Shown piece after piece: positions 21,345-38,270 of a stretch of DNA of 38,270 nt. The notes under the pieces were generated by a model, which was not told the origin of the DNA, did no database searches, and saw only the letters and a list, made by a program, of their open reading frames with translations. The first letter of the stretch is position 1; every line of letters begins with the position of its first letter. Origin of the DNA: Escherichia phage BUCT618; the sequence record OM735461.1; one strand, written 5' to 3'. Both the position numbers and the translations under genes were made by a program.

Positions 21345-21350
21345 TGTTGA

Positions 21351-21378: not shown

Positions 21379-21391
21379 CCATTACATGCGT

Positions 21392-21411: not shown

Positions 21412-21418
21412 AATTTGT

Positions 21419-21832: not shown

Positions 21833-21834
21833 GA

Positions 21835-23307: not shown

Positions 23308-23343
23308 GTTTAAATCCTCGTTTTGGCAAGTACTTGCCTGGTA

Positions 23344-23352
23344 ATAATATCA
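23344..23352 (-). promoter_or_regulatory. Candidate extended -10 promoter (GTGATATTAT) upstream of the sheath gene
   Basis: TG-a-TATTAT on the minus strand. Followed by palindrome GGCAAGTACTTGCC (23325-23338) and SD GAGGA. Confidence 0.35.
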
Positions 23353-23357
23353 CAGCC

Positions 23358-23885
23358 TCACAGCGCTGGCGAAGATGGCGCCACTGTTTCAATAGTAAGC
23401 ACATCGTCAGTTGATACCCACTGCCCTGTGACGTAAAACTGGCGCAGTCGGTAATCGTCAAATTCCGTCATTGGCGAGATATGGAAAACAACGTCTGACT
23501 GCCAGCGGGTGCGGTAAGCCTCATCACCCAACTCTGAAAGGTTTCTGGCCTGCCCGATGCTGATCAGCGCCATTCCCTCTGCTGCCAGTGCTCCGCGCGC
23601 CTCATAATAGTTTTTTAGTCCATGAAGCCCCATCAGCAAAGAATAGCCACCAGGACCATAAGCGTTCACGCTAACGGTTAGCTCTGAGTGGAACCAGTTT
23701 GTTTCCGTGAACGTCTCGTTATCAGCCTGCAGCACTCGCCTCTTCATCGGGCTGCGTTGCGGGATGATGGCCATTGGCTGAAACGTCATGTATACGCCAG
23801 TTGGACGCGGCCCGTTGTATGGCGCTTGCTTAACGACAGGCGTGAGGCGCTTAAGGAGTGCAGTCAATGCTGATTCAATACTCAC
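23358..23885 (-). CDS. Tail completion/neck protein (by position)
   Basis: 175-aa ORF between the head-tail joining genes and the sheath gene. Confidence 0.45.
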   Translation of the reverse strand: MSIESALTALLKRLTPVVKQAPYNGPRPTGVYMTFQPMAIIPQRSPMKRRVLQADNETFTETNWFHSELTVSVNAYGPGGYSLLMGLHGLKNYYEARGALAAEGMALISIGQARNLSELGDEAYRTRWQSDVVFHISPMTEFDDYRLRQFYVTGQWVSTDDVLTIETVAPSSPAL

Positions 23886-24274
23886 GAATCCCCCTGAATT
23901 TTCCGCACGGTGGCTTTGTAGTAATTGCCGAGGATGTCGCGGGTTTCCACCTTGATAACCTCGTATTCCTGACCCTCAAACTGGAAGCGGTCGGCATTAA
24001 CCTCATCAGTCCTGACGCGGACCGGAAAGGAGGTATAAATCTTCTGGATGTCCTGAATCTTCTGCCCGTCCGTGAATTGCATCAGTTCCTTTTCATTCAG
24101 TGGCTGCGGCGGCATTCCCTGGATTGTTTGCGTGGTCGACGTGCCTGGAACGTAAACCCCCTCGGAATTATCAGCCCCGGCAGAATATCGTATTAGGGTG
24201 TAGTTAATAAACTGATCGCCCCACACCTGATTAAAATCAAATAACATTATTCCTCCGGCTTGACGTATGCCCAT
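23882..24274 (-). CDS. Neck/tail terminator-like protein (by position)
   Basis: 130-aa ORF, coupled on both sides. Confidence 0.4.
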   Translation of the reverse strand: MGIRQAGGIMLFDFNQVWGDQFINYTLIRYSAGADNSEGVYVPGTSTTQTIQGMPPQPLNEKELMQFTDGQKIQDIQKIYTSFPVRVRTDEVNADRFQFEGQEYEVIKVETRDILGNYYKATVRKIQGDS

Positions 24275-24729
24275 CTGATTGAGCTTACCAGTTGCCCGGT
24301 ATCAATCAGCGGGTTATCTGATTTCTTCTTATCAATTGTGCTTTGCGCGTTTGGCGGTGACTTCAGTTGCACGATTGCCCGCTGCACATCCTGCTGCGCA
24401 ACCTCGCCAAGCCTGCCCATTGCCTGCCGCAGATTATAATTCTGTTCATTCATCACGCGAGCGGTAATCTTCCCCATGATGCCGATGTACTTCGCTTTCT
24501 CTTTCGCAAAGGTCGGTCGCAGCGTCGGGCGCTCAGGAATGCGTGATGTGCCAAATTCGTTCCACCAGTACACCTCTGCAACCGTTGTCCCAGTGGCGTG
24601 ACCCTGCTCATCCTTATGCGCTCCAGCGTCACCATGAACGCCAACAGCTACAGCGTGCGCACCGATGCGCCGCTGAATGTCGCGGATAGCGTTAGGATTG
24701 CGAATGACCAGTTTGTTTTTAGCAGCCAT
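24247..24729 (-). CDS. HK97 gp10-family head-tail joining protein
   Basis: WWNEFGTSRIPERPTLRPTF motif typical of the gp10 family. Confidence 0.65.
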   Translation of the reverse strand: MAAKNKLVIRNPNAIRDIQRRIGAHAVAVGVHGDAGAHKDEQGHATGTTVAEVYWWNEFGTSRIPERPTLRPTFAKEKAKYIGIMGKITARVMNEQNYNLRQAMGRLGEVAQQDVQRAIVQLKSPPNAQSTIDKKKSDNPLIDTGQLVSSIRWAYVKPEE

Positions 24730-25108
24730 AACCGGTTGCCGCTTCTGTCAGATATGGCCCAGCCCCGAACATGGTAATCAGGTTTTTGAACATCTGCCCG
24801 TAAGTCGTCCCATCCCACATTGAGCCATCAGAGCCAACGCCAATTGCCTGCCCTGATACGCTGACGTCACCAACCGTCCGCCCGGTAGTGACAACCGTAA
24901 CCGAACCGCCACCAGACTGACCAGTCGTCAGGTTGTAATTTGTCGCCAGCATGTGCGCCACATAGTAACCCTGCAGCACGTCGTAATATTCACCGTAGCA
25001 GCCGGTATATAAAACTGCGAACTCAGCAAGGTATCGCTGAATTACTTCATCCGGTACGTTAACAAACTCAGGGTATGAAGCACGAAATTTCGCAAGGTCT
25101 AGAGCCAT
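24719..25108 (-). CDS. Head-tail connector/adaptor protein (DUF4054-like)
   Basis: N-terminal LAKFRASYPEFVNVPDEVIQRYL resembles DUF4054 proteins. Position after the capsid genes. Confidence 0.5.
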   Translation of the reverse strand: MALDLAKFRASYPEFVNVPDEVIQRYLAEFAVLYTGCYGEYYDVLQGYYVAHMLATNYNLTTGQSGGGSVTVVTTGRTVGDVSVSGQAIGVGSDGSMWDGTTYGQMFKNLITMFGAGPYLTEAATGYGC

Positions 25109-25119
25109 ATTCCACCTGT

Positions 25120-25143
25120 AAAAAAGGGACGCCGTAGCATCCC
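25120..25143 (-). terminator. Rho-independent terminator/attenuator after the capsid genes
   Basis: Minus strand GGGATGC-tacg-GCGTCCC followed by TTTTTT. Confidence 0.7.
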
Positions 25144-25165
25144 TTTATTTTAACACGTCACCGGA

Positions 25166-25348
25166 TTATTTCTTAATCACGATGTAACCGGCATCAACGA
25201 GGTGCTTTTCGTTGCTTTCGATGAACGCCAGTTGTTCGGCAGTCACTTCGGTTTCAACGCCAGGAAGCAGACGCAGGTCGCCGGAGTAGTGAATGTTAGC
25301 GCGCTGGTTGGTAGCGGTAACTTTCTTGGTTGCTTTTACTTCAGCCAT
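25166..25348 (-). CDS. Small hypothetical head-associated protein
   Basis: 60-aa ORF immediately downstream of the major capsid gene. Confidence 0.5.
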   Translation of the reverse strand: MAEVKATKKVTATNQRANIHYSGDLRLLPGVETEVTAEQLAFIESNEKHLVDAGYIVIKK

Positions 25349-25350
25349 GA

Positions 25351-26379
25351 TTAAATCCCGTTAGTTACAGTAACAGACAGCGGGAAGTATACCACAACGC
25401 CAGCGGTTGCCAGGTAGCCATCCACCACAGTTGCCAGGTTGCGAGCTTCTGGCGGCATCATGGTAAACGGTTTTGGAACCTCAACGCCGAGCTTCTCGGA
25501 ATCGTTGCGATAGTGAATCATAGCGCTGTTGGTCTGACCGGTTCCCTGCGGACCCAGCCATTCCACGGTTTCAACCGTGATTTCCGGGTAGGATTTCTTG
25601 AAGCGCTCCATCGCATTCTCGCCGGTGTTATCGGTGAAGAATGTGGTGCGGGCACGCTCATAGCTCGCAGATGTCATGACGACGGTATCAGGACGCTCAG
25701 CGCCGATGGTGTCTGTCGCCTGCTGGGTAATTGGGTAAACCAGGTCAGCATAGATTTCTTCTGCTGTTTTAGTTGCCCAGGTCGATGTACCCTTCGCGCC
25801 GTTTGTTGCGGTGCGAGTGGTAACGTTCGGCGCGTTATACAGACCGGTAAGACCAGTTTCAGCATCGCCAACCCAGATGATCTGGTCCAGCTTCTGCTCT
25901 GCTGCATTTCGGATCGCCATACCCTTACGGTCAACGATATTCATGCCAGCAACGGTTGCTTTGGCGATTTCGAATACGCTGTAAATAATCGAGCCACCGA
26001 ATGCACGGATGTTTACAACCTTCTTCTCGCCAGTGACCTCGATGTTTGGCAGGTCGTCGGCGTAGTTGGTGATGTGCTCCAGCATACCAACGCGGTCAGC
26101 GACAGTGTAGGCAAACTCTTCAGCACCGAATGGCGCTTCGTTCTGCATAGGCAGCAGGTTTTTACCCTTGAATTGCGGGTATGCCTTCTCCCGGATGCGG
26201 TTAGACATCGCCTGCAACTGCTGCGCAAAGATAACACCGGTTGCGGCATCAGCACGGAAGCCAAGCTGTTGCACATCCAGCGCTTTAGATACCAGGCTCG
26301 CCAGCATGGTAGGAGTGGTTTCCCAGCCCGCATCCAGCTTCACGCCCTTAAGATGATCCAGTCGTAAATTGATATTCAT
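25351..26379 (-). CDS. Major capsid protein
   Basis: 342 aa. Position after the scaffold and decoration genes and before a terminator. No TTA/CTA/TCA across codons 5-288, the span covered by the register-frame antisense ORF 25513-26367. Confidence 0.75.
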   Translation of the reverse strand: MNINLRLDHLKGVKLDAGWETTPTMLASLVSKALDVQQLGFRADAATGVIFAQQLQAMSNRIREKAYPQFKGKNLLPMQNEAPFGAEEFAYTVADRVGMLEHITNYADDLPNIEVTGEKKVVNIRAFGGSIIYSVFEIAKATVAGMNIVDRKGMAIRNAAEQKLDQIIWVGDAETGLTGLYNAPNVTTRTATNGAKGTSTWATKTAEEIYADLVYPITQQATDTIGAERPDTVVMTSASYERARTTFFTDNTGENAMERFKKSYPEITVETVEWLGPQGTGQTNSAMIHYRNDSEKLGVEVPKPFTMMPPEARNLATVVDGYLATAGVVVYFPLSVTVTNGI

Positions 26380-26392
26380 TTATAATCCCCTG

Positions 26393-26866
26393 TTAGGCAG
26401 CTGGTGCGGTGGTGGCAGGTTTCAGGTTGACAATCGCAACGCCTGCACCAGTGGTGGAGGTGTCGAAGATGCCTACCGGTCGTGTTGCTGCTGAGGCTGC
26501 AACGTTGGTGAATCCAGAGCCATCAGTGAGGGCGTAGGCCAGCTCACCCTGATTCACAGCTGCCTTAACAGTTACCCACACCGGGCCATCGGTCACAACA
26601 GAAACGTCTTTGCCGATTGCGTGAACCTGCTCGGTTGCGCCATCAGCGGCAACCCAGGTGGCTTCCCAGCGAACCACGCCGATAACCACATCGTTGGCAG
26701 AAGATACCGGCTTAACTTTGTGGTCGTTGTTATCACGCACAGCAGCCTGACCTGCTTTGATAGCAGCAGATGCGATACGGCTGACGGTCTGCGTCATTCG
26801 TGCGTCCGCAACCATGCCAGGGGAGTACGGCTGTGGAGTTAAGGAATAGGTGTTATTAAGCGCCAT
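26393..26866 (-). CDS. Head decoration/structural protein (DUF2190-like by position)
   Basis: 157-aa ORF between the scaffold and capsid genes. Confidence 0.5.
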   Translation of the reverse strand: MALNNTYSLTPQPYSPGMVADARMTQTVSRIASAAIKAGQAAVRDNNDHKVKPVSSANDVVIGVVRWEATWVAADGATEQVHAIGKDVSVVTDGPVWVTVKAAVNQGELAYALTDGSGFTNVAASAATRPVGIFDTSTTGAGVAIVNLKPATTAPAA

Positions 26867-28137
26867 TATGCTTTCCCCGCGTAGAATTTAGCGTTATATG
26901 CGGCCTGACCAGACTCTTCGCGAGAGTTGAACATGCCATCAAGATTCAGACCCTGGCGCTGAGTGCGCAGGCTGTCGGTGCGATTCTTCAGGCCATCTAC
27001 TGCGGCATCGAATCGACCGCTGATATAGGCATCGGACTTGCCATCAGCATTGAAGCCGGATTTTGCGGCAATGAGCGCCTCAACCTGGATTTCGCGAGCA
27101 GTTTTCACGCGCTTGCCATCCATGTGGCTGATGCCCGGTTTCAGTTTTTTGGCATCCTCGATGATTCGCAGCATTTTGCTGAGGGAGTCGGTTTTCTGCT
27201 CCGGGTCGGTGTCGGTGTCTTCATCCACCTTATCCGGGCATTCTTCATCCATTAAGGAATCAGGAGTGTCGCCGCTTACCGCGTCAGCCAGCTCATCCAG
27301 CTGAGCCTGAAGGGTGTCTACCGCTTCGGAAACGCTGGCTACTGCGTTTTCTACCGCCGGAACATCGACTTCCACCACTTCCTTGTTCTCGTCGTCGGCA
27401 TCTTTAATGATGTCGTCAGCGTCTAGCTTAAGTTTTGGAGCGATGGCTTTTACCAGCTTTTTCAGCTGACCTGTAGCGGAATCAAGGCGCTTGCCCTGCT
27501 TCGCCAGCGCCGCGTTGATGGTCGCTGCCGTAGCTGCATCTGCAACTTCAACAGTGCCGCCGCCGGGCAGTTTGATTTGAGTCATTGATTTCTCCTCGTT
27601 ATTCGGCACATGTGCGCCATCAAAACGCAGTGAACAGATTGAGCCACCTCGCGCGGCATCCACGATGGCCTGATGGTTATAGCGCCGATTGCGCTGGACA
27701 CGGTCATACTTCTGGCCCTGCCATTCGCCCGGCGTTTCATCAAGGTCAACGGAATAACCCGGAGAAAGCTCAGTTACACCGCCGTATTCTACAGCATGTA
27801 AAGCCTCGTTGCCAATTACCAGCATTGACGCAACAAGATTGTCACCATCACGCTTTGGCATCCCGTTAACGCTGCCCTGTGAATACTGTTTGTAATTGGA
27901 TGGCGTAACCATTTCAGGTGGGTGCTGCAAAGTCACCGGAGCGCCAGCCAGGGACTTCAGCGATTCCTCATCAAACAGCGTCTCCTCTGGCACAAATTCA
28001 CGGATAATCGTGCCATCATCTTCCATATACTCAAGAATGCCGACATGAGCCACCACGCCATCAATGCGCAGGTATCCGTTTTCGTCAATCTTTGAGGTGA
28101 TTCTACCGCCTTTGTCGATGCGATAATCTTTTTTCAT
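26866..28137 (-). CDS. Scaffolding/prohead protease-like protein (DUF2213-like)
   Basis: N-terminal GYLRIDGVVAHVGILEY.. and ..LSPGYSVDL... Acidic coiled-coil centre. Confidence 0.6.
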   Translation of the reverse strand: MKKDYRIDKGGRITSKIDENGYLRIDGVVAHVGILEYMEDDGTIIREFVPEETLFDEESLKSLAGAPVTLQHPPEMVTPSNYKQYSQGSVNGMPKRDGDNLVASMLVIGNEALHAVEYGGVTELSPGYSVDLDETPGEWQGQKYDRVQRNRRYNHQAIVDAARGGSICSLRFDGAHVPNNEEKSMTQIKLPGGGTVEVADAATAATINAALAKQGKRLDSATGQLKKLVKAIAPKLKLDADDIIKDADDENKEVVEVDVPAVENAVASVSEAVDTLQAQLDELADAVSGDTPDSLMDEECPDKVDEDTDTDPEQKTDSLSKMLRIIEDAKKLKPGISHMDGKRVKTAREIQVEALIAAKSGFNADGKSDAYISGRFDAAVDGLKNRTDSLRTQRQGLNLDGMFNSREESGQAAYNAKFYAGKA

Positions 28138-28145
28138 TTTTTACC

Positions 28146-28991
28146 TCAGAACTCAATTACATTACTTGCGTAGCAGCGGCAGTTTATTGCCTGCCCTGGA
28201 AAAGTATCGCGAGCACCAGCACCATCTGACCAGTTATACGTCTTGCCGTTACGCGCATAGTGCGATGGTTTGGCTTTCGGGTATCGGCCTGATGGGTTTC
28301 CTCGCACCCGCTGGTCTTCCATCGTGCGCCATACGAATTGCTTGATTTCCAGGTCTGCCGCACGTTGCTTTGTTACCTGCATATTCATAGTGGCGACCTG
28401 GTCACGGGCAATCAGGTCGGCGCGTCGTTTAGCAACCCCGGTTTCGGCCCGAATGTTTTTGCTGATGTCGCGCCATGACAGGCCATCGCGAAATCCAGAG
28501 TTAACGGCAGTTGTAATCTTGCTCAGGTAGCTTTGCGTCAGATTGGTAATCAGCGCAGTATTTTCCTCAGCCCATGCGTCAATATTTGCGCTCATGTCAG
28601 TTCCTGGCAATGCCACGTTGACGCCAATGGCCTGGTTGATTGCTTTCTGCCAGTTACCATCAATTGCCGAACGAATAGAATCGCCAATGTTGCGCACGAA
28701 TGACAGTCCCGGAATATTACCCGTTGCCAGTGAGCGAATAGCTCGCAGAACAGCAGACAGGTCATCAACCCGATAACCATCCTCACGCGCCGCAATCTCT
28801 GCTTTTAATTCATCAGCGATGCGGGTTTTCAGCTCGGCATTAATGCCGTCAATGATGCCGCGCAGCATCTTCGCGTACTGCTGTTCAATCCGTACAGGGT
28901 GACGGGCTGGCAGCAGAACCTTACGCTTCCGCTTGTCAGGCTTCAGTGCTTCCAGTTGTTTCTGAAATTCCGTTTGTGCCATTTTCGCCAC
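28146..28991 (-). CDS. Head morphogenesis protein (SPP1 gp7 / Mu F family)
   Basis: C-terminal ..FPGQAINCRCYA signature. Follows the portal gene and overlaps its 3' end. Confidence 0.75.
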   Translation of the reverse strand: MAKMAQTEFQKQLEALKPDKRKRKVLLPARHPVRIEQQYAKMLRGIIDGINAELKTRIADELKAEIAAREDGYRVDDLSAVLRAIRSLATGNIPGLSFVRNIGDSIRSAIDGNWQKAINQAIGVNVALPGTDMSANIDAWAEENTALITNLTQSYLSKITTAVNSGFRDGLSWRDISKNIRAETGVAKRRADLIARDQVATMNMQVTKQRAADLEIKQFVWRTMEDQRVRGNPSGRYPKAKPSHYARNGKTYNWSDGAGARDTFPGQAINCRCYASNVIEF

Positions 28992-30303
28992 CGAGTGAGT
29001 TAAGACCTAACGGATCCTGTTCTTCTTCATCCTCCGGCAATTCTTCCAGCGAGAACAGGCCAGTATCGTTGGCCAGATTGCGCACCTCGTTAGGCGTGAG
29101 CGCAGCAGATTGCTCAAGCGTTGAAATTGCCGTCGCTACCGATGCCATCGAGGTTGCTTTCTTGTCTGGTGACATCGCACTAAGTTCTGCCCACCGCCAG
29201 TCGAAGTCCAGTCCGGTCTGCATCTTCACGTTATCAATGCATGACTGCACCAGCGCAGACGGATCGCCTTCCTGAATCGCGGCAATCTTGTCGTAGTAAA
29301 CCGACAGGATTTCCTCCTGGCTGGCATTCAGCCCTGCAGGAGATTTCCCGAACAGCATCATTTCGGAAAGGCCAGTCGCGCCAGCTACCGCAGTGGCAAA
29401 GCGGTCAACGAAGTCGGGGATTCCCTGGAGTGATCGGTTAACGAACTCGAATGACTCTTCCTTATCGACAACCGCCGCCCGGTAGATTGACTTACCCTGG
29501 TTGAAGGCGTTTGCACGGTTCATTACTGCCTGCGATGCCGTCATCCCCATTGATTGCGCAGCTGTCAGGTTAGGCACGGAAAGAATGCCAACCCCTGACT
29601 CTTTCAGCAGGAATGAAGCATCCTGTAATGTCTCGTTGTATGCGGCAATTGCCGACCATGCCATCGCAACATAAGAGCCACCCCATCCCTGCAGTTCAAT
29701 CTGGGTATCGTAAGGAACCGGGCAGCCATAGAAAGGCGCAATGCGGTCGCGGTGATACGTCACGCCGTTGCGAGCCACATAATTCAGTGCACGCCCATAA
29801 TGCGGGGACTCAGGGTCAAGGTCGATTTCATCAACACTTAATGACCAGCGGTCGAGCGGCACCAGGTCAATGATGGCCGCCGTTTCTGATGGGGGTGATT
29901 CTGGCGGGCGAGAATCGTCGTAAACCTTCAGCACGCCAGCACCACCGAACAGGCGTGACCAGGCGATACCCTTGCGAACTGCCGCGCGCAGACCAATCTC
30001 ATCAAGCATGGTTTCAACGCGCTTTTTGTCCTCACCATCCAGACCGGTGATTTCGATAAACTTGCGTGTCGCATCCTCTGCGGGGAGGTCGCAGATTTTA
30101 CGCGCCAGCCAGTCCGACAAATAGATGTTAGTCAGCACCTGCTGATTGTTGTGCATCAGGTGCGCAAATGCAGGAGACAGAACTTGCCCGAGGCTCTTGT
30201 CGATGCCAGGAATACCCTGCCCGGATATTGGGTTAGCCCACGCATCAACGCGGTAAGACATGCTGCCGTCATTATGCAGCTTGAGGTGGGGCTTCTTAGC
30301 CAT
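28936..30303 (-). CDS. Portal protein (DUF1073-type)
   Basis: 455 aa, first gene of the head module, acidic C-terminus. SD GAGGGA. Confidence 0.75.
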   Translation of the reverse strand: MAKKPHLKLHNDGSMSYRVDAWANPISGQGIPGIDKSLGQVLSPAFAHLMHNNQQVLTNIYLSDWLARKICDLPAEDATRKFIEITGLDGEDKKRVETMLDEIGLRAAVRKGIAWSRLFGGAGVLKVYDDSRPPESPPSETAAIIDLVPLDRWSLSVDEIDLDPESPHYGRALNYVARNGVTYHRDRIAPFYGCPVPYDTQIELQGWGGSYVAMAWSAIAAYNETLQDASFLLKESGVGILSVPNLTAAQSMGMTASQAVMNRANAFNQGKSIYRAAVVDKEESFEFVNRSLQGIPDFVDRFATAVAGATGLSEMMLFGKSPAGLNASQEEILSVYYDKIAAIQEGDPSALVQSCIDNVKMQTGLDFDWRWAELSAMSPDKKATSMASVATAISTLEQSAALTPNEVRNLANDTGLFSLEELPEDEEEQDPLGLNSLGGENGTNGISETTGSTEA

Positions 30304-30330
30304 TATCAGTCCCTCATGAAAATTAACGTC

Positions 30331-30339
30331 AGTATATCA
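30331..30339 (-). promoter_or_regulatory. Candidate extended -10 promoter (GTGATATACT) for the head operon
   Basis: TG-a-TATACT on the minus strand, about 28 nt upstream of the portal ATG and just after the terminator at 30355-30382. Confidence 0.4.
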
Positions 30340-30354
30340 CGGAGGATTGGATAA

Positions 30355-30382
30355 GAAAAAACCCGCCGAAGCGGGTCTTTTT
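30355..30382. terminator. Rho-independent terminator (bidirectional shape) ending the tRNA transcription unit
   Basis: AAAAAA-ACCCGC-cgaa-GCGGGT-CTTTTT. On the minus strand it follows the tRNA CCA end by 5 nt. Confidence 0.75.
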
Positions 30383-30386
30383 GATT

Positions 30387-30463
30387 TGGCGCACACGGAC
30401 GGATTTGAACCTTCAATCAGCCGATTATAAGTCGGTTGCTTTAACCAATTAAGCTACGCATGC
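30387..30463 (-). tRNA. tRNA with anticodon UAU (Ile, AUA codon), CCA encoded
   Basis: Manual cloverleaf. Acceptor GCAUGCG/CGUGUGC (two G-U pairs). D arm GCUU/AAGC with GG in the loop. Anticodon loop C-U-UAU-A-A. T loop UUCAAAU. One A-C mismatch and one A-G mismatch in the stems. Confidence 0.8.
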
Positions 30464-30498
30464 GAAATTTGCTGGTTTAAGCATTGCCAGCGTGCTTT

Positions 30499-30564
30499 CT
30501 TAATATCCAGCCCCGTAACCCATACATACCCCTACATATGATTGCGATAACGCTGGATATTAAG
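30499..30564. repeat. 13-bp perfect inverted repeat (CTTAATATCCAGC / GCTGGATATTAAG) with a 40-nt loop, 35 nt upstream of the tRNA
   Basis: Arms at 30499-30511 and 30552-30564. The loop (minus-strand sense) contains the tandem TATGTAGGGG TATGTATGGG and three or four G-tracts. Confidence 0.7.
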
Positions 30565-30793
30565 TGTTGCGGCGTTTCGCGATTAACTGAAACTGGCATA
30601 ACAATGGATGCAACCCTATCAAAATAATCAATTTGGCATTACCACAACGGCAAGAGCACTGCATGGTTTTACCATTACATCCGAAGATTTATCTGGTGTA
30701 GTCAATGCCCTTGCCTGTTGTGTGCCGGTTACGCGTCCGGCGTCAACCAAGTTGACCGATTCACAGACACAACGGGAGCAACGTTGTGATGTA

Positions 30794-30822
30794 AGTATCA
30801 CCCAATCTGATTATCGTGTCAA
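30794..30822 (-). promoter_or_regulatory. Sigma70-like promoter of the tRNA unit (GGTTGACAC-N17-GATACT)
   Basis: TTGACA at 30822..30817 (contains the o-spanin TGA stop) and GATACT at 30799..30794. Confidence 0.55.
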
Positions 30823-31049
30823 CCTTTCCGCGATGGCATTTTGTCGTCGTTGCACTTTTTCTTCCACGTTTCGTTGTGGGTCAGAATCTGGCGCAGCGTA
30901 CCATCGGTCATATGGTCGATTTCAGTGCGGTCCAGCCAGATTGGGTGCACCCAGTAGCAGCTGGTGTCAATTACCTGGACGGGTCCATTCGTCGCGCAGC
31001 TTGTCGCGGACAGAGCCAGGATTGCTGCGCAGAACTTCATCTTTAACAT
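30819..31049 (-). CDS. Outer-membrane spanin (Rz1-like lipoprotein), overlapped arrangement
   Basis: Signal-like MKFCAAILALSATS-C. Starts inside the i-spanin gene in another frame and extends past its stop. Confidence 0.55.
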   Translation of the reverse strand: MLKMKFCAAILALSATSCATNGPVQVIDTSCYWVHPIWLDRTEIDHMTDGTLRQILTHNETWKKKCNDDKMPSRKG

Positions 31050-31230
31050 CGTTTGCCACCTTAACGGATTCTGTGCGGGCTTTCTCTTGTGCCAATGCCT
31101 GTTGCGCCTGCTGGATGTATGATTTAGATTTCTGCTCTGACTTACCGCGAGACTTACCGCCGAGCCAGAGTCCGACAGCGCCGATGATTAGCGCGGTGAT
31201 TGCGCCGATGATGGTGCTCAGGGTTATCAT
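30967..31230 (-). CDS. Inner-membrane spanin (Rz-like)
   Basis: N-terminal TM helix IIGAITALIIGAVGLWLGG followed by a charged coiled coil. Last position in the lysis cassette. Confidence 0.65.
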   Translation of the reverse strand: MITLSTIIGAITALIIGAVGLWLGGKSRGKSEQKSKSYIQQAQQALAQEKARTESVKVANDVKDEVLRSNPGSVRDKLRDEWTRPGN

Positions 31231-31263
31231 TTATCAGCCTCCTGAAACCTTTCTGCCTTCCGG

Positions 31264-31488
31264 TTATCCAGCGGTCGAATCATCTTTCTTCTCCCTCACG
31301 GCAATCAGCTTGTTAACGGAGTTGCCAGCAACGACGACGGCGAGGTAAATGCCGAACATATCTGTCGTCAGCGTGTTCTGATATGCCTGCCAGACGATGA
31401 CGCCTGACGCAATCATGACGCCGATGAACTGGCATGTTTTTGACAGAGAAAAGTCGCCGACTGGCGAGGTTAGCAGGTCTTTAAGCAT
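31264..31488 (-). CDS. Holin (two predicted TM helices, charged C-terminus)
   Basis: 74 aa with CQFIGVMIASGVIVWQAY and MFGIYLAVVVAGNSV. Sits between the endolysin and the spanins. Confidence 0.6.
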   Translation of the reverse strand: MLKDLLTSPVGDFSLSKTCQFIGVMIASGVIVWQAYQNTLTTDMFGIYLAVVVAGNSVNKLIAVREKKDDSTAG

Positions 31489-31552
31489 CGGTTCCCCAGA
31501 ATAGCGCGACCAGGATTAGCACTACTGTAGCACCAATACAGACCTCGACCAA
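31481..31552 (-). CDS. Possible 23-aa single-TM peptide between endolysin and holin (TTG start)
   Basis: (M)VEVCIGATVVLILVALFWGTDA. Its TAA overlaps the holin ATG region. No clear SD. Confidence 0.2.
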   Translation of the reverse strand: MVEVCIGATVVLILVALFWGTDA

Positions 31553-31556
31553 ATAA

Positions 31557-32105
31557 TCAAAGGGAAATGCGATTGGCAATCCAGCCATATGCGAAAGCCT
31601 CGTTATCCTGACGGCCTTCCGCCAGCTCAATATACCGCGCACCCTGGAGGCAGTTCAGTGCCTTGAGCATCACAGTTTCACCTTGCTTGCCGCGCAACCC
31701 CAGATAGCTTTTAAGGGCTGAAGCAGTAGCAGGGCCAACCTTTCCGTCGACAGCAATATCAGCGTATGTCTTGCCCTGGTTGTTAAAGGCGTTCAGGCAG
31801 CGCTGAAGGAACTTTCCCGCCACTGATGGCCCCATGTTAACCCCTGTATCAACCACTTTGGCAGCGATGGATTCAGACAGCGGAATAAGCAGGTCAAACT
31901 TTGGCTTCGATACGTATTGAGTGTAGTAGATGTTTTCGGCAAGTGAGATGGGGAGGTCTTTCATTGCGCCGGTGTAACCATTGGCAACAGCTACCGACTT
32001 TGTAATGCCGTACATCGTTTCGCCGCCGGAGTCGTTTGGGTTATTTGAGTAACCACCTTCGACTTTGATGATGTCGTCAATAATTGACTTTACAGCCGGG
32101 GTCAT
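31557..32105 (-). CDS. Endolysin, glycoside hydrolase family 108 N-terminal domain + PG_binding_3-like C-terminal domain
   Basis: IIKVEGGYSNNPNDSGGETMYGIT signature of GH108. Confidence 0.8.
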   Translation of the reverse strand: MTPAVKSIIDDIIKVEGGYSNNPNDSGGETMYGITKSVAVANGYTGAMKDLPISLAENIYYTQYVSKPKFDLLIPLSESIAAKVVDTGVNMGPSVAGKFLQRCLNAFNNQGKTYADIAVDGKVGPATASALKSYLGLRGKQGETVMLKALNCLQGARYIELAEGRQDNEAFAYGWIANRISL

Positions 32106-32209
32106 AAAAACCTCATTATTAAGTTTTGGCTCGATTTCGCTCTAGCGGGTTCGTCGTGGCATACTTGCCTGTCGGCGATGCCCCGCTTCCTATCCAGGAA
32201 AGCGAAGCC

Positions 32210-32238
32210 AATTTAACATATAAAAAAGCAAAAGTCAA
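32210..32238 (-). promoter_or_regulatory. Sigma70-like promoter of the lysis cassette (TTGACT-N17-TAAATT)
   Basis: Reverse complement reads TTGACTtttgcttttttatatgtTAAATT. It precedes a leader of about 100 nt containing hairpins. Confidence 0.5.
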
Positions 32239-32285
32239 AAGAAGGAGCACAAAATGACGCTGGTGGAAATAGATTGTTATAGTGT

Positions 32286-32314
32286 TTGACATAAGGCATA
32301 GATGCGGTAAGATT
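32286..32314 (+). promoter_or_regulatory. Early promoter, same family as 3972-4000
   Basis: TTGACA 32286-32291 and GGTAAGATT 32306-32314. Confidence 0.65.
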
Positions 32315-32343
32315 TAGCCATCACCAACAAGTGGAGCAATAAC

Positions 32344-32649
32344 ATGAAAGAGTTTAAAGGTACGCCTGGGCCGTGGGTTGCAGATAAGACATCTCGCGCG
32401 ATAGGCCCAATTAGCCATGATGATGACCAGTCTTACGGAATTTTAATTCCTGTTGCCTGGGTGGAGTTTGACCAAGATGAGGGGATTAAGGCGTCAAACC
32501 AACGCCTCATCGCTGCAGCGCCTGAGTTGCTGGAGGCCTTGAAGAAAATGGTCAGCAAAGCGTATAAGCAAAACTGGAATGATGCATACCCAGAAGAGAT
32601 TCAATCAGCACAGGCAGCAATCAACAAAGCACTGGGAGAAAAACAATGA
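32344..32649 (+). CDS. Hypothetical protein
   Basis: 101 aa, SD GTGGAG. ..NQRLIAAAPELLEALK.. motif is common in small phage early proteins. Confidence 0.6.
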   Translation: MKEFKGTPGPWVADKTSRAIGPISHDDDQSYGILIPVAWVEFDQDEGIKASNQRLIAAAPELLEALKKMVSKAYKQNWNDAYPEEIQSAQAAINKALGEKQ

Positions 32650-33527
32650 AACTTATCGACTTGCTGGTTAAAGAGTTACCGCAGTGGGGCGGGTGGCCTG
32701 AAGGTGCGATAAATGCTACACAAGATAAAGATGGGGTGGTGAATTTCTATGAAGGTGCAACACCTGTATTTGCCTCGGTCGCCTGGCTTGGTGGTGACTG
32801 GTGCGGAAATGAGTTTAACACAATTACGGCCAGCGACTACGACACCGCCATTGTCACCCGAGAACAATACGAATCCGCGCTCGCAGCCAGTAAAGCCGTT
32901 GTTGGCCATGACGGATGGATTCAATGGGCTGGCGGTGAGTGCCCGGTTGATAGTGACGCAATTGTTGAAGTCAAATACCGAAATCCGAGCCGGAACAAAT
33001 TCAATAATGATCGTGCTGGCGATTTTACCTGGTCACATGATGGATTTGGCGGTGACATCATCGCCTACCGCCTGCAACAGCCGACGAAATCAGAACAGGC
33101 TTGCGATGACGCTGCGGAAGCTGATGACGAAGCAGACCTGAACGAGTGCATTGGTCAGGATATTGATATTCCGGAATGGAATGGTGAAGGGTTGCCGCCA
33201 GTTGGCACTATCTGCCAGGCCAAAGTCCCGCGCTCAATTACTGGGTGGGAATGGCGAAGGGTGAAGGTTGTCGAGTCTGGCATCCCAGGCGCAGAGAAAG
33301 AGGTGCTTGTTTATGACCTGGAGACAACAATCCCATCATGGGCAGATGAATTCCGACCACTCCGCACCGAAGCGGAAAAGGCGCGTGAGAAATTGGCCGC
33401 GTCGCTTCATATTGCGGCTGGCGCCAGTCCAATCGAATTAAACGGCATAGGGACTTTATACTTCAAGCTGGCTGATGCCATCATTTCAGGAAGCGTTTTC
33501 GGAACTACATTCAAGGCGGGTAAATAA
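32646..33527 (+). CDS. Hypothetical protein
   Basis: 293 aa, ATGA-coupled. Confidence 0.6.
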   Translation: MKLIDLLVKELPQWGGWPEGAINATQDKDGVVNFYEGATPVFASVAWLGGDWCGNEFNTITASDYDTAIVTREQYESALAASKAVVGHDGWIQWAGGECPVDSDAIVEVKYRNPSRNKFNNDRAGDFTWSHDGFGGDIIAYRLQQPTKSEQACDDAAEADDEADLNECIGQDIDIPEWNGEGLPPVGTICQAKVPRSITGWEWRRVKVVESGIPGAEKEVLVYDLETTIPSWADEFRPLRTEAEKAREKLAASLHIAAGASPIELNGIGTLYFKLADAIISGSVFGTTFKAGK

Positions 33528-33751
33528 TGGATATTGACGTAGTTAACCATCCATCGCACTACACTAAGGGCAGAATCGAGTGCATTGATGCCATTGATTC
33601 AGCCACCACCGGAAAATCAGGAATCGAAGCCGTATGCGTGGCAAATATCATTCGTTACCTGTGGCGCTACGAAGAAAAAGGTGGCCTTGAAAGTGTAAGG
33701 AAGGCGCAGTGGTATCTTAACAAATTAATCTCTGAACTGGAGTCAAAATAA
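33527..33751 (+). CDS. DUF3310-like protein
   Basis: NHPSHYT..IECIDAI...[21 protein letters not shown]. Confidence 0.65.
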
Positions 33752-34275
33752 TGGCATCGAGAGGCGTTAACCGTGTAACAATCCTGGGCAACCTCGGCAA
33801 TGACCCGGATGTAAAATACACCGCATCAGGAAGCGCAATCGCAAACCTGACGGTGGCAACATCTGAGTCATGGAATGACAAGGCAACCGGTGAGAAGAAG
33901 GATTTGACCGAATGGCATCGCGTCGTGCTGTTCGGCAAACTGGCAGAGGTGGCAGGTGAATACCTCCGAAAAGGTTCGCAAGTCTATATTGAAGGCCAGC
34001 TTCGAACCCGCAAATGGACCGACCAATCCGGCCAGGAGAAATACACCACAGAGATTGTTGTCGGCATGAATGGGGTGATGCAGATGATTGGCGGAAAGCA
34101 GGATAGCAAGCCTCAGCAACAAAGCGGATGTGGGCAGCCTCAACAACCAAAGCCGCAGCAGCAGAGCAAGCCAGCACCAGCCGGGCATAATGTTCCTCCA
34201 GTGGACTTTTCTGACGACATTCCGTTCGCTACCATTGGTTTGCAGTACGGGAAATCGAGAATCTACGCCCTATAA
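33751..34275 (+). CDS. ssb: Single-stranded DNA-binding protein
   Basis: [58 protein letters not shown].. with a Gln/Pro-rich linker and an acidic DDIPF tail motif. Confidence 0.9.
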
Positions 34276-34294
34276 TTATCACCATATCAACCAA

Positions 34295-34313
34295 CCCGCT
34301 ACGGCGGGTTTTT
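34295..34313 (+). terminator. Rho-independent terminator after ssb
   Basis: CCCGC-tacg-GCGGG followed by TTTTT. Confidence 0.75.
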
Positions 34314-34331
34314 CATCTTTTACGCAATCTG

Positions 34332-34360
34332 TTACAATTTCAAGATTGTTCCAGTATATT
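34332..34360 (+). promoter_or_regulatory. Candidate promoter (TTACAA-N17-TATATT)
   Basis: Located between the ssb terminator and the 34409 gene. Confidence 0.4.
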
Positions 34361-34408
34361 CACTCAAAGGCAGGCGTGTACCCTAAGGAAAGAAGAAAGG
34401 GGGTGCAT

Positions 34409-34726
34409 ATGCCAAACAGGATGAACATGTCTACAGTCGAAGAGCGGCTAACGAAAGTTGAGACGAATCTTGCGAACCTTGCAGATGCACAAAGGGATGT
34501 TAGCCAGGCTTTAAACAAGGTGTCTGAGTCCATCCACGCCATCCAGATTAGCATTGAGCGCCAGAACGCGAGTATTCATCAGATAGTTGAGTTGCGTCGT
34601 GATGTTGATGCAATGTCGAAGGATGTGGATAAGCTAAAAGGCAAGGTGTGGTGGTTAGGCGGCGTGGCAGCCGCCTGTACTTTCATTATCGTGAACTTCT
34701 CGCGCATGAAAGACTTCTTTCACTGA
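34409..34726 (+). CDS. Coiled-coil protein with C-terminal TM anchor (XhlA-like architecture)
   Basis: Start chosen at the ATG with SD AAGGGGG (track ORF extends upstream in frame). Coiled coil LTKVETNLANLADAQRDV.. followed by WWLGGVAAACTFIIVNF. Confidence 0.55.
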   Translation: MPNRMNMSTVEERLTKVETNLANLADAQRDVSQALNKVSESIHAIQISIERQNASIHQIVELRRDVDAMSKDVDKLKGKVWWLGGVAAACTFIIVNFSRMKDFFH

Positions 34727-34853
34727 TGCGGATTATATCCATGTCGCGCATGGTTGCATGACGTGCGCGGGCGAAGTAGTATCGCGCGAATGTGAATCCA
34801 TAGCGGCGCAATCCGCCAGCAAATCCCCACCGTTCAATCAGCCACCATTTCAT
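34686..34853 (-). CDS. Possible 55-aa basic/aromatic protein
   Basis: MKWWLIERWGFAGGLRRYGFTFARYYFARARH... In frame with track ORF 34686..34973. Its 3' end overlaps the convergent 34409-34726 gene by 41 nt. Confidence 0.3.
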   Translation of the reverse strand: MKWWLIERWGFAGGLRRYGFTFARYYFARARHATMRDMDIIRISERSLSCARSSR

Positions 34854-34981
34854 TTCATCCTCCCCAGATAGAAGCATACTCCCGCCGCACTGAGATATAT
34901 TGCCGCTGAAATATCGCGGTTGATAGCTGCCGAGAATATTGCCGACAGCACCAGGAAAAGCATTGGCATCCACTTGATCAT
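34850..34981 (-). CDS. Possible 43-aa hydrophobic membrane peptide
   Basis: MIKWMPMLFLVLSAIFSAAINRDISAAIYLSAAGVCFYLGRMK. SD GAGGGG 9 nt upstream. ATGA-coupled to the next small ORF. Confidence 0.35.
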   Translation of the reverse strand: MIKWMPMLFLVLSAIFSAAINRDISAAIYLSAAGVCFYLGRMK

Positions 34982-35026
34982 TTTTTTACCCCTCATCATA
35001 TTTCGCCTCAAATCCACAGATTGTGG

Positions 35027-35054
35027 TTGACATTACCATGATACATGGTAACCT
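35027..35054 (+). promoter_or_regulatory. Early promoter with an embedded palindromic operator candidate
   Basis: TTGACA 35027-35032 and GGTAACCTT 35047-35055. The spacer is the palindrome TTACCATG-ata-CATGGTAA (35033-35051). Confidence 0.55.
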
Positions 35055-35079
35055 TATCCATATCAACACGGGAGGTAGT

Positions 35080-35196
35080 ATGAATCAGCAGAAATTTGAA
35101 TCAGCACAACGGGCGGCAAGACTGGCAGTTAAGTGTAGAAGCAAAGGCGCATGGAAAGAGGCGATGCGCCTGCTTCGGGAGGCTATTTATGCTTGA
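35080..35196 (+). CDS. Hypothetical 38-aa protein
   Basis: MNQQKFESAQRAARLAVKCRSKGAWKEAMRLLREAIYA. SD GGGAGG. Confidence 0.4.
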   Translation: MNQQKFESAQRAARLAVKCRSKGAWKEAMRLLREAIYA

Positions 35197-35335
35197 CCGT
35201 CATTGCCCAATCGACCGCGACGAACGCATCCACGCCGACAGCTGGCAGGATGAGCCAACAGAGGAAGATATTGAGCGCCAGCGCTCAATCATCGAAGCAC
35301 AGGCAGACTTAGAGGAGATGTACAATGGCTGGTGA
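35189..35335 (+). CDS. Hypothetical 48-aa acidic protein
   Basis: MLDRHCPIDRDERIHADSWQDEPTEEDIERQRSIIEAQADLEEMYNGW. Its ATG overlaps the previous stop (ATGCTTGA). Confidence 0.4.
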   Translation: MLDRHCPIDRDERIHADSWQDEPTEEDIERQRSIIEAQADLEEMYNGW

Positions 35336-35501
35336 ATTTGCAGTTTACACATCGGTAGCTGTCGGCGGGAAGAGTGGCCGACAAACCAAGCAAGAAACAC
35401 GCGAGCAGGTCATCGCTCGCAATAGTTTCCCTGGTCCAGACCAGAATCGTTACATTGATAAGTTTTTAGCGGAGCAGAAGAAAAATGAGCAACTGGCATA
35501 A
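35325..35501 (+). CDS. Hypothetical 58-aa protein
   Basis: MAGEFAVYTSVAVGGKSGRQTKQETREQVIARNSF... Overlaps the previous ORF by 11 nt. Confidence 0.4.
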   Translation: MAGEFAVYTSVAVGGKSGRQTKQETREQVIARNSFPGPDQNRYIDKFLAEQKKNEQLA

Positions 35502-35568
35502 CGAACACATCATGCAGTGGCATCGCCGTCGCATTAAGTCAATCATTAACCCTTGTGAGGTTTAACAA

Positions 35569-35955
35569 ATGGCAAAAACTACATATAGTCGAGAAGAACT
35601 TGAGCGCCAACTAGCAGAATCACGCCGCGAGTTCTGGGCAGCAGACGCTACCATTAGCAATCTTGAAATGAAGCTCGCAGACATGGCGGCACAGCTCGCT
35701 AACGCAGAGAACAAGTGCGCAGCGCCGGTATCTGTGCCTGCTGAGCGTGCAGCATTTGAAACCTTCATGGAGAAACGCTTTAAAGACCTTATCGACCGTC
35801 GCCTGGTGAAGAATGGTGATGGTGAATACTTCGCGTGGGACATGCAGGTTGCATGGATTGTCTGGCAAGAGCGCGCCGCTATGCTTAAGTGCTCCGAACC
35901 TGTAACGGACAACACGAATCAGCAATTCGAATCTCTAAGCAGAGGCGACAAATGA
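35569..35955 (+). CDS. Hypothetical protein (coiled-coil N-terminus; Ead/Ea22-like feel)
   Basis: 128 aa, SD GTGAGG. Confidence 0.6.
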   Translation: MAKTTYSREELERQLAESRREFWAADATISNLEMKLADMAAQLANAENKCAAPVSVPAERAAFETFMEKRFKDLIDRRLVKNGDGEYFAWDMQVAWIVWQERAAMLKCSEPVTDNTNQQFESLSRGDK

Positions 35956-36356
35956 ACGGAAAAATAGCACTTCGCGACATCATAAAAGCAATTGTTATTC
36001 TTAAACCTGGCGTTACGATGGCGGTAATTCAGCGGATGATATGGACAAAAACACCAAGCGCAACAATTGGGACGGCGCTGCACTGCATGTCAGCACAAGG
36101 GTTATTTACGACAAGGAGGGTTGAAAACAAAGGAAGGCGAGGATTCAAATGCAATGCCTACTATCCAACGAAGAAGCTACTGGACTCGTTCACGGTTACG
36201 AGCGAGATGCGGGAGTATCTTGGGCTGACGGATGGCGACCTTAACCCAGGGAAGGTGAAGCGCAAGTGCAACACTGTCTTTGAGTCATGTAAACAAAGCC
36301 CGGCAACGAAACGCATCCTTTGGTTTTATGGGCGCGGTGAATTGCCAGCCATCTGA
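35952..36356 (+). CDS. Hypothetical protein
   Basis: ATGA-coupled start at 35952 (track ORF extends upstream in frame). 134 aa. Confidence 0.55.
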   Translation: MNGKIALRDIIKAIVILKPGVTMAVIQRMIWTKTPSATIGTALHCMSAQGLFTTRRVENKGRRGFKCNAYYPTKKLLDSFTVTSEMREYLGLTDGDLNPGKVKRKCNTVFESCKQSPATKRILWFYGRGELPAI

Positions 36357-36395
36357 TTGGTTAAGCGAGGTTATGACGATTATGGAGAAGTTTCG

Positions 36396-38258: not shown

Positions 38259-38270
38259 AATAAACAAGGC

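Follow-up and report, generated by a model that had tools for sequence, protein, structure and literature searches.

Introduction

Phages are known to carry transfer RNA (tRNA) genes for the reading of AUA codons, such as ileZ of the Stx phages, the tRNA-Ile of T4 and tRNA3 of P1, and T4 also produces two stable RNAs, species 1 and 2, that are co-transcribed with its tRNAs. Other RNAs are tRNA-like or processed by RNase P, among them the YrlA Y RNA, the tRNA-like domain of transfer-messenger RNA (tmRNA), mascRNA, the C4 RNA of P1 and P7 and the CI RNA of P4. At the DNA level, the attC sites of integrons are imperfect inverted repeats with AAC...GTT ends, a variable centre and strand asymmetry, and take part in cassette exchange. 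GOLLD and ROOL are large ‘ornate’ phage RNAs found beside tRNA genes (PMC12286853). Here we describe a transcription unit of Escherichia phage BUCT618 (sequence record OM735461.1; the 38,270 nucleotides (nt) analysed are called the window), in which a tRNA with the anticodon UAU is preceded by a structured, non-coding RNA. This upstream RNA apparently belongs to an undescribed, widespread and modular family of phage RNAs, in which the tRNA is an optional passenger.

Like the Escherichia coli ileX/ileY-type tRNA-Ile2 (CAU) and its phage-borne forms, the tRNA of the window would read a rare codon of the isoleucine box. It differs from the tRNA-Ile2 types (CAU, lysidine) in its UAU anticodon, and from its own CAU relatives in the pairs C2-G71 and U4.G69 and in G73; the kind of tRNA is a known one, in an unusual anticodon form. 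The upstream RNA, a new variant of tRNA-associated phage structured RNA, resembles T4 species 1 and 2, GOLLD and ROOL in being non-coding, structured, borne by phages or prophages, and often placed beside and co-oriented with tRNAs. Unlike GOLLD and ROOL, it is made of short autonomous units that occur singly or in any combination and carry hypervariable cassette inserts.

Organisation of the unit and its upstream RNA

Read along the minus strand, positions 30355–30822 hold a promoter, about 325 nt without a credible coding sequence, the tRNA (30463–30387), a spacer and a terminator. This arrangement is probably an autonomous non-coding RNA operon, set between the lysis cassette and the portal gene and built of exchangeable modules. 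An initial annotation, made from the sequence alone, had likewise described a stand-alone unit running from promoter to terminator, with TTGACA-N17-GATACT overlapping the o-spanin stop codon. It had also placed a strong terminator 5 nt past the tRNA; the terminator is there, but it begins 9 nt after the CCA. The minimum free energy (MFE) fold of 30464–30790 (327 nt) reaches −109.9 kcal/mol (z = −3.72), with none of 100 shuffled sequences folding as well, and contains all of the hairpins that the initial annotation had listed. The features of the unit are as follows.

30794–30822, minus strand: sigma-70-type promoter-like site, TTGACA (30822–30817), N17, GATACT (30799–30794)
30768–30788, minus strand: 5' hairpin CACAACG-uugcucc-CGUUGUG, from the sequence and the MFE fold
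30742–30756, minus strand: hairpin GUCAAC-uug-GUUGAC, from the sequence and the MFE fold; also in the relative L374
30724–30741, minus strand: hairpin GCCGG-acgcguaa-CCGGC, directly abutting S1
30643–30722, minus strand: S1 module, a stalk of 19–20 bp with one bulged A, capped by a 41-nt insert
30722–30703, minus strand: S1 5' arm, CACAAC-A-GGCAAGGGCAUUG, matching the family consensus
30702–30662, minus strand: S1 insert VAR1, 41 nt
30661–30643, minus strand: S1 3' arm, CAGUGCUCUUGCC-GUUGUG, matching the family consensus
30566–30648, minus strand: second module, closed by a 7-bp helix, GUUGUGG (30648–30642) / CCGCAAC (30572–30566)
30593–30574, minus strand: second-module hairpin GUUUC-aguuaaucgc-GAAAC
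30471–30564, minus strand: block C, a 13-bp stem with a conserved G-rich 40-nt loop, then a hairpin
30564–30552 and 30511–30499, minus strand: arms of the 13-bp stem of block C, CUUAAUAUCCAGC and GCUGGAUAUUAAG
30491–30471, minus strand: block C hairpin GCUGG...CCAGC
30387–30463, minus strand: tRNA with anticodon UAU, 77 nt including an encoded CCA (GTGTGCG-CCA), discriminator G73
30355–30377, minus strand: intrinsic terminator, GACCCGC-uucg-GCGGGU followed by U6

In a consensus scan the predicted promoter matched the sigma-70 consensus at 10 of 12 positions, and the TGA stop of the o-spanin open reading frame (ORF; 30819–31049) falls within its −35 hexamer. The promoter is kept as TTGACA-N17-AATACT in L374 (loci are cited by their numbers in this analysis) and lies outside the segment common to other phage groups, the similarity to which begins at 30744. 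The same terminator is found in L374 and in a second relative, L354; judging by the A-run upstream of it, it could work in both directions.

S1 was defined in this analysis by the consensus CACAAC-A-GGUAAGAGCAUUG / CAGUGCUCUUUCC-GUUGUG, the two arms of which pair on the transcribed strand around a variable insert, VAR1. The S1 of the window (30722–30643) shows three differences from this consensus, two of which turn a consensus U.U into C-G. The CACAAC/GUUGUG motif that closes S1 recurs in the 5' hairpin at 30788–30768, which in L374 runs on as CGTTGTGGTGAAT (also given as GTTGTGGTGAAT), the start of the S2 motif described below, and then breaks off; by its sequence this hairpin looks like an ‘empty’ scaffold or a recombination scar. 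Skate-like phages share a segment whose first element is the hairpin at 30724–30741. This hairpin is identical in L001, L332, L307 and L374, with another hairpin or a terminator in its place elsewhere.

The second module occupies the position where other phages have canonical S2, yet it is not S2. Its insert type is also present in L001, L004, L011, L332, L307 and L316, and its hairpin shows a compensatory U-A to C-G change (L332) with a G.U intermediate (L011). The GUUGUG at 30648–30643 is common to the base of S1 and the closing helix of the second module, and the two pairings are mutually exclusive. A conformational switch is thus a possible property of the sequence, in which GUUGUG would pair with either the upstream CACAAC or the downstream CCACAAC. 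A loop–loop contact within the second module, through the 5-nt complementarity GAUUA/UAAUC, is likewise possible. Block C was recognised in the window (30564–30471) by its stem, G-rich loop, GCUGG/CCAGC hairpin and position upstream of a tRNA slot, and is 95–98% identical in many phages.

Sharing among phages and exchange of cassettes

A megablast search, which detects similarity of about 85% or more, was run with window positions 20000–38270 against 50,697 phage records and gave a match only at about 30344–30744. Parts of the module are shared at 80–99% identity by 143 records, mostly Skate-like and Saltrevirus-type Salmonella and Escherichia siphophages, in which it lies between the tail-tube and head-tail genes on the strand opposite to them. 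The match is a mosaic, with the sub-segments shared varying from record to record. The module is thus one that unrelated phages share horizontally.

The two close relatives, L354 and L374, exist only as IMG/VR contigs of sample 3300045988. Both are about 90% identical to the window across 26–35 kb (9 kb), and despite this identity VAR1 (L374), the second module (both) and the tRNA (L374) differ from those of the window. Hence inserts and tRNAs behave as exchangeable cassettes on a constant scaffold. The aligned upstream regions gave the consensus layout hairpin, ACACAAC-A-GGUAAGAGCAUUG-VAR1-CAGUGCUCUUUCC-GUUGUGG...VAR2...CCACAAC, block C, tRNA slot, terminator.

Block C and the tRNA are adjacent in most copies. 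The slot after block C holds the tRNA type of the window, a tRNA-Asn(GUU) (L374), or a tRNA-Ser-like gene with tRNA-Arg(UCU) (L401), and in at least seven loci (L428, L332, L307, L356, L384, L245 and L316) block C is followed by the terminator with no tRNA at all. The upstream RNA therefore does not depend on the tRNA, and the ‘leader’ of the initial annotation is not supported if taken to mean an RNA in the service of the tRNA. Of the 234 viral loci as a whole, 27 carry a tRNA no more than 400 nt away, in every case on the same strand; this is about 15-fold over the background in these loci.

The records listed for the genome-reduced mutants of Salmonella phage seszw (MZ375295–MZ375354, 45.9 down to 36.5 kb) all keep the segment from S1 to block C; the published reduction study contains no discussion of the module region (PMC9825161). 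The retention may mean that the element is non-dispensable, or may just reflect its place among structural genes. In Skate (L002 2077–2591), three small annotated ORFs, CPT_Skate_053, 054 and 055, run antisense to the RNA of S1, the second module and block C and are probably spurious.

Pairing and covariation

The helices of the modules are RNA-level, strand-specific and covarying. At 140 sites with arms matching both strands, the S1 stalk forms 18–19 of 19 pairs on the tRNA-sense strand and 13–15 on the other, a difference due to conserved G.U pairs. These strand-pairing figures come from a loosely defined set of 228 sites, whereas those on insert diversity given below come from 150 stricter units. 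Among the features that S1 keeps are two of a non-Watson-Crick kind, a U.U mismatch and a U.G pair. S1 with the window-type insert is carried by five unrelated phages, in which none of the stalk pairs is broken and six of the 25 predicted pairs are changed on both sides; the window-type VAR1 holds a conserved internal loop, GAUAA/GUAA, between covarying stems. In the block C stem (23 variants), one pair changes from U-A to C-G in eight sequences, and one-sided changes give G.U.

The S2 motif, which often accompanies these scaffolds, was defined by a closing helix, a hairpin GCGCA-GGCUGA-UGCGC (A), an insert VAR2 and a hairpin GCCGG-AGAUCAGCA-CCGGC (B). In many phages it lies within the second unit, the closing helix of which is GUUGUGG/CCACAAC, and the two invariant hairpins flank VAR2. 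Across 42 diverse units, 90.1% of cells were paired as against 76.0% in shuffles, and double changes were found in 19 of 27 pairs. The covariation score was 0.366 against 0.108, a value reached by none of 500 shuffles, with shifted partner columns giving 0.06–0.10.

The closing helix of S2 has a modal contiguous length of 7 bp and is continuous into the 5-bp hairpin B. Furthermore, 5 nt of one loop can pair with 5 nt of the other (GCUGA/UCAGC); both sides are altered in one variant family (GUCGA/UCGAC), and the other loop changes are G.U-compatible, bar one mismatch. These helices and loops give S2 the topology and dimensions of a tRNA, with an acceptor-like helix of 7 bp, a T-like helix of 5 bp and ‘D’ and ‘T’ loops that can touch, a variable region of 10–173 nt replacing the anticodon arm. 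ACC is the commonest trinucleotide after S2 (20 of 107, about 1.6% being expected by chance). S2 is like the known tRNA-like RNAs in its cloverleaf-like topology, its 7-bp helix stacked on a 5-bp hairpin, its possible loop contact and its ACC, and some second modules of the close relatives of the window have true T-arms; it differs in that its ‘elbow’ would consist of five Watson-Crick pairs between invariant loops, not of T-loop/D-loop contacts. S2 could conceivably be an undiscovered self-cleaving ribozyme; such an RNA, too, would combine an invariant core with a variable periphery and would occur in phages with no gene linked to it.

The S2 covariance model (R1) scored 32–52 bits on the S2 copies of L016, L017, L253 and L438 with their inserts included. 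Nothing above chance was detected with it in L354 and L374 or in the window (best 8.6 bits, E = 2.4, outside the second module). The only S2-like features of the second module of the window are its 7-bp closing helix, an adjacent terminal hairpin with a compensatory change, and the possible loop–loop complementarity noted above.

Distribution of S1 and S2 and diversity of the inserts

The S1 and VAR1 unit of the window is 95% identical in the T7-like Enterobacter phage phiKDA1 (Autographiviridae), where it follows the capsid-gene terminator. Diverged copies are present in two further phages. That of the Klebsiella myophage SBP has no tRNA and is bounded by a promoter and terminator of its own, and that of phiEt88, a lambdoid Erwinia phage, is situated downstream of Q and ahead of tRNA-Phe. 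An S1-S2 query matched 162 phage records, in none of which it is annotated as RNA; they include the lambdoid phages mEp460 and HK633, Stx2 phages, the P1-like RCS47, the myophages ep3 and JEP4, podophages, Klebsiella siphophages, 160-kb Klebsiella phages, and Cronobacter, Pantoea and Erwinia phages. With an S1-S2 query, 808 of 5,426 complete E. coli genomes (about 15%) were matched, again without annotation. In the two E. coli lambdoid prophages examined, the match lies between the Q antiterminator and holin genes, straight after a tR'-like terminator; the element is absent from the Q-to-lysis regions of DLP12 and Qin in E. coli K-12, a strain with dense small-RNA maps. Two conserved words each occurred in at least 120 IMG/VR loci.

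In RCS47 (L438 1935–2560), an S1-S2-S1-S2 array starts one base past the CCA of tRNA-Thr. The array directly follows tRNA-Asn and tRNA-Thr. Two annotated ORFs, ‘plp’ and ‘upl’, cover it on the other strand; these ORFs may be mis-annotations of an RNA locus.

At least 120 bacterial contigs contain an exact copy of a 20-mer of S2 hairpin A; they belong to Gamma-, Beta- and Alphaproteobacteria, Desulfobacterota and others. Of these contigs, 70 also have hairpin B within 300 nt, and some of the rest look like coding coincidences. CI-like repressors, RecT and SSB are among the neighbours of bacterial S2, pointing to prophage-like contexts. In an Stx2a_1447 phage (L437 2501–2646) and a Pseudomonas prophage (L452 2986–3153), S2 stands just downstream of a cI-like repressor gene on the same strand, and in such a position it may be expressed in lysogens, like morons of the rex/sieB type. 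Terminator-like hairpins were present within 110 nt after S2 in 17 of 70 cases, compared with 2 of 70 controls. The genes flanking S2 (64 downstream and 60 upstream ORFs) formed no cluster larger than three.

The inserts are highly diverse. The 150 high-confidence S1 units contain 93 distinct VAR1 sequences (27–113 nt) in 50 similarity clusters, and the S2 units 123 distinct VAR2 sequences in 97 clusters. Some insert families covary internally, and T-arm-like hairpins (GGTTCGAnTCC) were found in 6 of 159 VAR1 and 5 of 123 VAR2 sequences, as against 0–1 in shuffles. The idea that the inserts are stable stem-loops or ‘anticodon arms’ was rejected, their folding as a class being no better than that of shuffled sequence. 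Host rRNA or tRNA copies were also considered, and only the SBP-type VAR2 resembles any. This VAR2 (L016 2709–2755; also L170, L173 and L181) is similar to helix 11 of 16S rRNA, with a local Rfam match of E = 1e-7 and 86% identity over 29 nt to E. coli 16S positions 254–282, and by this likeness could mimic a ribosomal-protein binding site. The scaffold and the inserts of the window gave no significant match to the rrnH operon, no complementarity longer than 13 nt was found for an antisense target in the window, and insert matches elsewhere in 4.8 Mb of loci were mostly self-matches and uninformative.

Comparison with known RNA families

The Rfam scan that the initial annotation had proposed for the leader returned no known family. 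With Rfam 15, only the tRNA reached threshold in the window and 13 homologous loci, and permissive scans of the leader, SBP, the E. coli prophage and the P1-like phage yielded terminator-like or chance matches only. There was no Rfam 15 match to GOLLD, ROOL, YrlA, C4, STnc100, ribozymes or riboswitches, the YrlA model giving just a weak hit that overlaps genuine tRNAs. The module is never annotated as RNA in GenBank phage or RefSeq E. coli records, its motif sequences were not found in 8 million full texts of the literature, and keyword searches brought up no equivalent. The Pas small RNAs (10.64898/2026.05.13.724894) were considered and are different elements.

In a comparison with boxA (UGCUCUUUAACAA), the first 8 nt equal both rrnH copies (E = 2.2), while the rest diverges and the segment is paired in the stalk. 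A likeness to the rrn boxA core is seen in the 3' arm of S1 in the window (30661–30651), CAGUGCUCUU(G); the family consensus, UGCUCUUU, agrees fully with the two rrnH copies of boxA, a match that is not significant alone.

The tRNA with anticodon UAU

ARAGORN identified a tRNA-Ile, with the anticodon tat at position 35, as the sole tRNA in the window, and the Rfam tRNA model (RF00005) gave 61.1 bits (E = 5e-11; gathering score 29), which bears out the tRNA(UAU) with encoded CCA of the initial annotation. Its body is nearly invariant among homologues, whereas position 34 is C, A or U. At this wobble base (window 30429), most homologues have CAU (for example, L001 2778–2854), Skate (L002 2611–2687), L006, L012 and L367 have AAU in different backgrounds, and the window and L354 have UAU. 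The UAU lineage differs from its CAU relatives in C2-G71 and G73, and the window also in U4.G69.

The anticodon arm of the CAU form, CGACUCAUAAUCG, is identical over 13 nt to that of E. coli tRNA-Ile2. The tRNA-Ile2 query itself is carried by 5,424 genomes, in most of which its identity is 99% or higher, and is annotated as tRNA-Ile among the matches listed. Overall identity leaves the origin undecided between Ile2 and Met (56 versus 58 of 77 positions, with metT as the Met sequence), and the tRNA shows no DNA-level similarity to any E. coli genome. As both derived anticodons fall in the isoleucine box, the simplest reading, which we infer, is that the family is an AUA decoder of the tRNA-Ile2 type. 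The tRNA of the window probably derives from a CAU tRNA of Skate-like phages.

Decoders of the lysidine type have a CAU anticodon, in which C34 is converted to lysidine by TilS. The window tRNA has U34 in place of this C34, and by its sequence should read AUA without lysidine. A tRNA-Ile with A34 is, to our knowledge, unusual for bacteria. The changes at position 34 could reflect recurrent selection, through escape from anticodon nucleases or independence of TilS, and this C/A/U wobble polymorphism is a natural experiment on AUA decoding without lysidine.

The 42 ORFs of the window use AUA at 8.0 per 1000 codons (12.5% of isoleucine codons); the frequency in E. coli is roughly half of this. 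The genes for capsid, scaffold, portal and sheath have almost no AUA, whereas several tail, baseplate and replication genes have as much as 15–23 per 1000. A supply of AUA decoding, as suggested in the initial annotation, is plausible, but it would favour tail, baseplate and replication genes rather than head genes and is not specific to highly expressed genes. The antisense HNH gene that had been mentioned in this connection was not located, five candidate ORFs having no Pfam HNH match.

The ‘tmRNA’ reported by ARAGORN in L014 (3200–3574) spans the non-coding RNA and reuses the 3' half of a real tRNA. It is probably a false call, prompted by a T-arm-like insert, GGCGGTTCGACTCCGC.

Proposed working and alternative explanations

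In the working that we propose, the primary transcript would be cut by the host enzymes that process tRNA and rRNA, with RNase P acting at the 5' end of the tRNA, trimming at its 3' end and, possibly, RNase III cutting the 19–20 bp S1 stalk. The released tRNA would supplement AUA decoding for the tail, baseplate and replication genes. The same cuts would set free at least one stable structured RNA acting in trans, most plausibly as a protein-binding decoy or scaffold, the specificity of which would be set by the variable insert. The invariant scaffolds, including their non-Watson-Crick features, and the invariant S2 loops, combined with hypervariable and exchangeable cargo, point to a scaffold specifically recognised by a conserved host or phage factor and to diversifying or frequency-dependent selection on the inserts. 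Together with cassette exchange, this is what an arms-race function would be expected to look like. A diversifying, RNA-based system that serves counter-defence or competition between phages, with each insert as a decoy, sponge or guide for a different factor of the host or a rival and the tRNAs as part of the same tool-kit, is a tentative suggestion that we would rate as unlikely.

If the RNA products are real, they form a common unannotated class of phage non-coding RNA in lambdoid, P1-like and T7-like phages, myophages and siphophages. The class would explain long ‘empty’ intergenic regions and spurious small ORFs such as plp/upl and CPT_Skate_053–055, would offer a handle on why phage tRNA genes sit where they do, and would provide in S2 a new tRNA-shaped fold to study.

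Several points weigh against the operon and family proposed here. The promoter, the terminator and every cleavage step are predictions, and the evidence is computational throughout. About 10% of the loosely defined S1 units may, by our estimate, be chance matches, and the apparent conservation of the scaffold is inflated by the use of exact conserved words to retrieve the loci. Block C and the window-type second module are so alike that their covariation rests on few events, and recent horizontal transfer alone would explain this identity. The inserts fold no better than shuffles (median z −0.4 for VAR2 and 0.1 for VAR1), hence ‘structured cargo’ holds for some insert families only. The analysis revealed neither a target or partner protein nor a conserved gene nearby. 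It is uncertain which amino acid the UAU tRNA carries, given G73 and the altered acceptor stem. Moreover, a set of 8,495 candidate phage RNAs (PMC10690425; about 10,000 viral candidates) may already include the family as an unnamed entry.

The upstream RNA could instead be the plain leader of a tRNA precursor, which RNase P or RNase E would remove and which would owe its conservation to hitch-hiking with a recently transferred tRNA. The near-identity of block C wherever it is found is as expected after recent transfer, and its usual adjacency to the tRNA and the failure of the search to give a function or target fit as well; however, block C and S1 run straight into the terminator in the tRNA-less loci, S1 and S2 occur in phages without this tRNA, helix substitutions are compensatory or G.U-compatible, and 325-nt scaffolds with swapped inserts are unlike a spacer, making this explanation improbable. 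The initial annotation had offered a co-transcribed non-coding RNA or decayed tRNA genes, and it is the structured non-coding RNA that is upheld. Decay from a larger phage tRNA cluster would account for the T-arm-like hairpins in some relatives' inserts, the T-arm beside an acceptor-like 7–9 bp helix that ends the second modules of L354 and Skate, the tRNA topology of S2 with its modal 7-bp helix and following ACC, and the location of elements in tRNA arrays. Yet the tRNA model matches nothing in the window leader with E as permissive as 10, a tRNA contains no equivalent of the S1 stalk, and conservation and covariation of the scaffolds across unrelated phages indicate selection, not decay, so that an array of decayed genes is improbable. 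It is harder still to credit that a small protein is encoded: the minus strand has ORFs of 34, 36, 40 and 57 codons (only two, of 15 and 34 codons, had been noted initially), and in some records the homologous DNA bears ‘hypothetical proteins’, most of them in the opposite orientation, but the ORFs cannot be conserved, as the inserts that they cross are replaced by unrelated sequence of different length in relatives about 90% identical. With substitutions that track base-pairing instead of codon position and no evident Shine-Dalgarno sequence, a protein from the 34-, 40- or 57-codon ORF is extremely improbable, indeed the least credible of the explanations.

If the element acted as DNA, its inverted repeats would be recombination sites, either attC-like folded single strands or sites served by another recombinase, with inserts and tRNAs as cassettes and RNA structure as incidental. 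The swapping of both between phages of about 90% identity agrees with this, as do the truncated scaffold junctions at the 5' end of the window unit and the form of S1, which like attC (about 60–150 bp) is an imperfect inverted repeat of about 70–150 bp ending in ...AAC/GTT..., with a variable centre, a bulge and mismatches. Against it, ordinary homologous recombination at conserved scaffolds explains the swapping. Unlike attC sites, the modules are oriented with promoter/terminator pairs and adjacent tRNAs (27 of 27), and their arms are conserved across hosts. In addition, ACACAAC/GTTGTGG departs from the attC consensus RYYYAAC/GTTRRRY at one and two positions, the closing helix of the second module is the same on both strands and cannot be an oriented attC, and the neighbour-gene comparison found no linked recombinase or other conserved gene (the window was not searched for an integrase). 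We therefore regard a recombination element as improbable. A cis-acting signal, either a boxA/put-like antiterminator against Rho or RNase III/RNase P punctuation of polycistronic transcripts, would suit the lambdoid prophages, where S1-S2 comes right after the tR'-like terminator in the late leader, and the phiKDA1 copy directly past the capsid terminator; the 8-mer UGCUCUUU is common to the two rrn boxA elements and the 3' arm of S1, CAGUGCUCUUU, and 19–20 bp is a typical length for an RNase III substrate. The 8-mer match is nevertheless not significant alone, and NusB/NusE require boxA to be single-stranded, while in the S1 stalk the 8-mer is paired. The module is also present in T7-like phages, the late genes of which by analogy with T7 use the phage RNA polymerase; it forms a stand-alone gene from promoter to terminator with nothing downstream to regulate; and hypervariable inserts are unnecessary for such a role. 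No consistent association with one downstream gene, as for a leader or riboswitch, was found at the flanks of block C and S2. A role in cis consequently has little probability, and the autonomous RNA operon of exchangeable modules remains the reading that we prefer.

Genomic setting

The genes on either side place the unit between the lysis and head modules, as had been annotated initially. Upstream lie a GH108 endolysin, small membrane proteins with DUF2644 and DUF2681, and a lipoprotein ORF, and downstream the portal, a Mu-F-like protein and the major capsid protein. The portal (window 28936–30303) is at most 40% identical to any of the 50,697 phage records and, the RNA module apart, the phage is novel. 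An extended −10 element (TG-a-TATACT) is located at 30331–30339 on the minus strand, just past the terminator and 27 nt ahead of the portal start. It is conserved in L354 and L374, suggesting that the head operon probably has its own promoter. On the plus strand, a 246-codon ORF (30608–31348) runs antisense over the leader and over the genes for both spanins and the holin; that it is a gene can almost certainly be dismissed.

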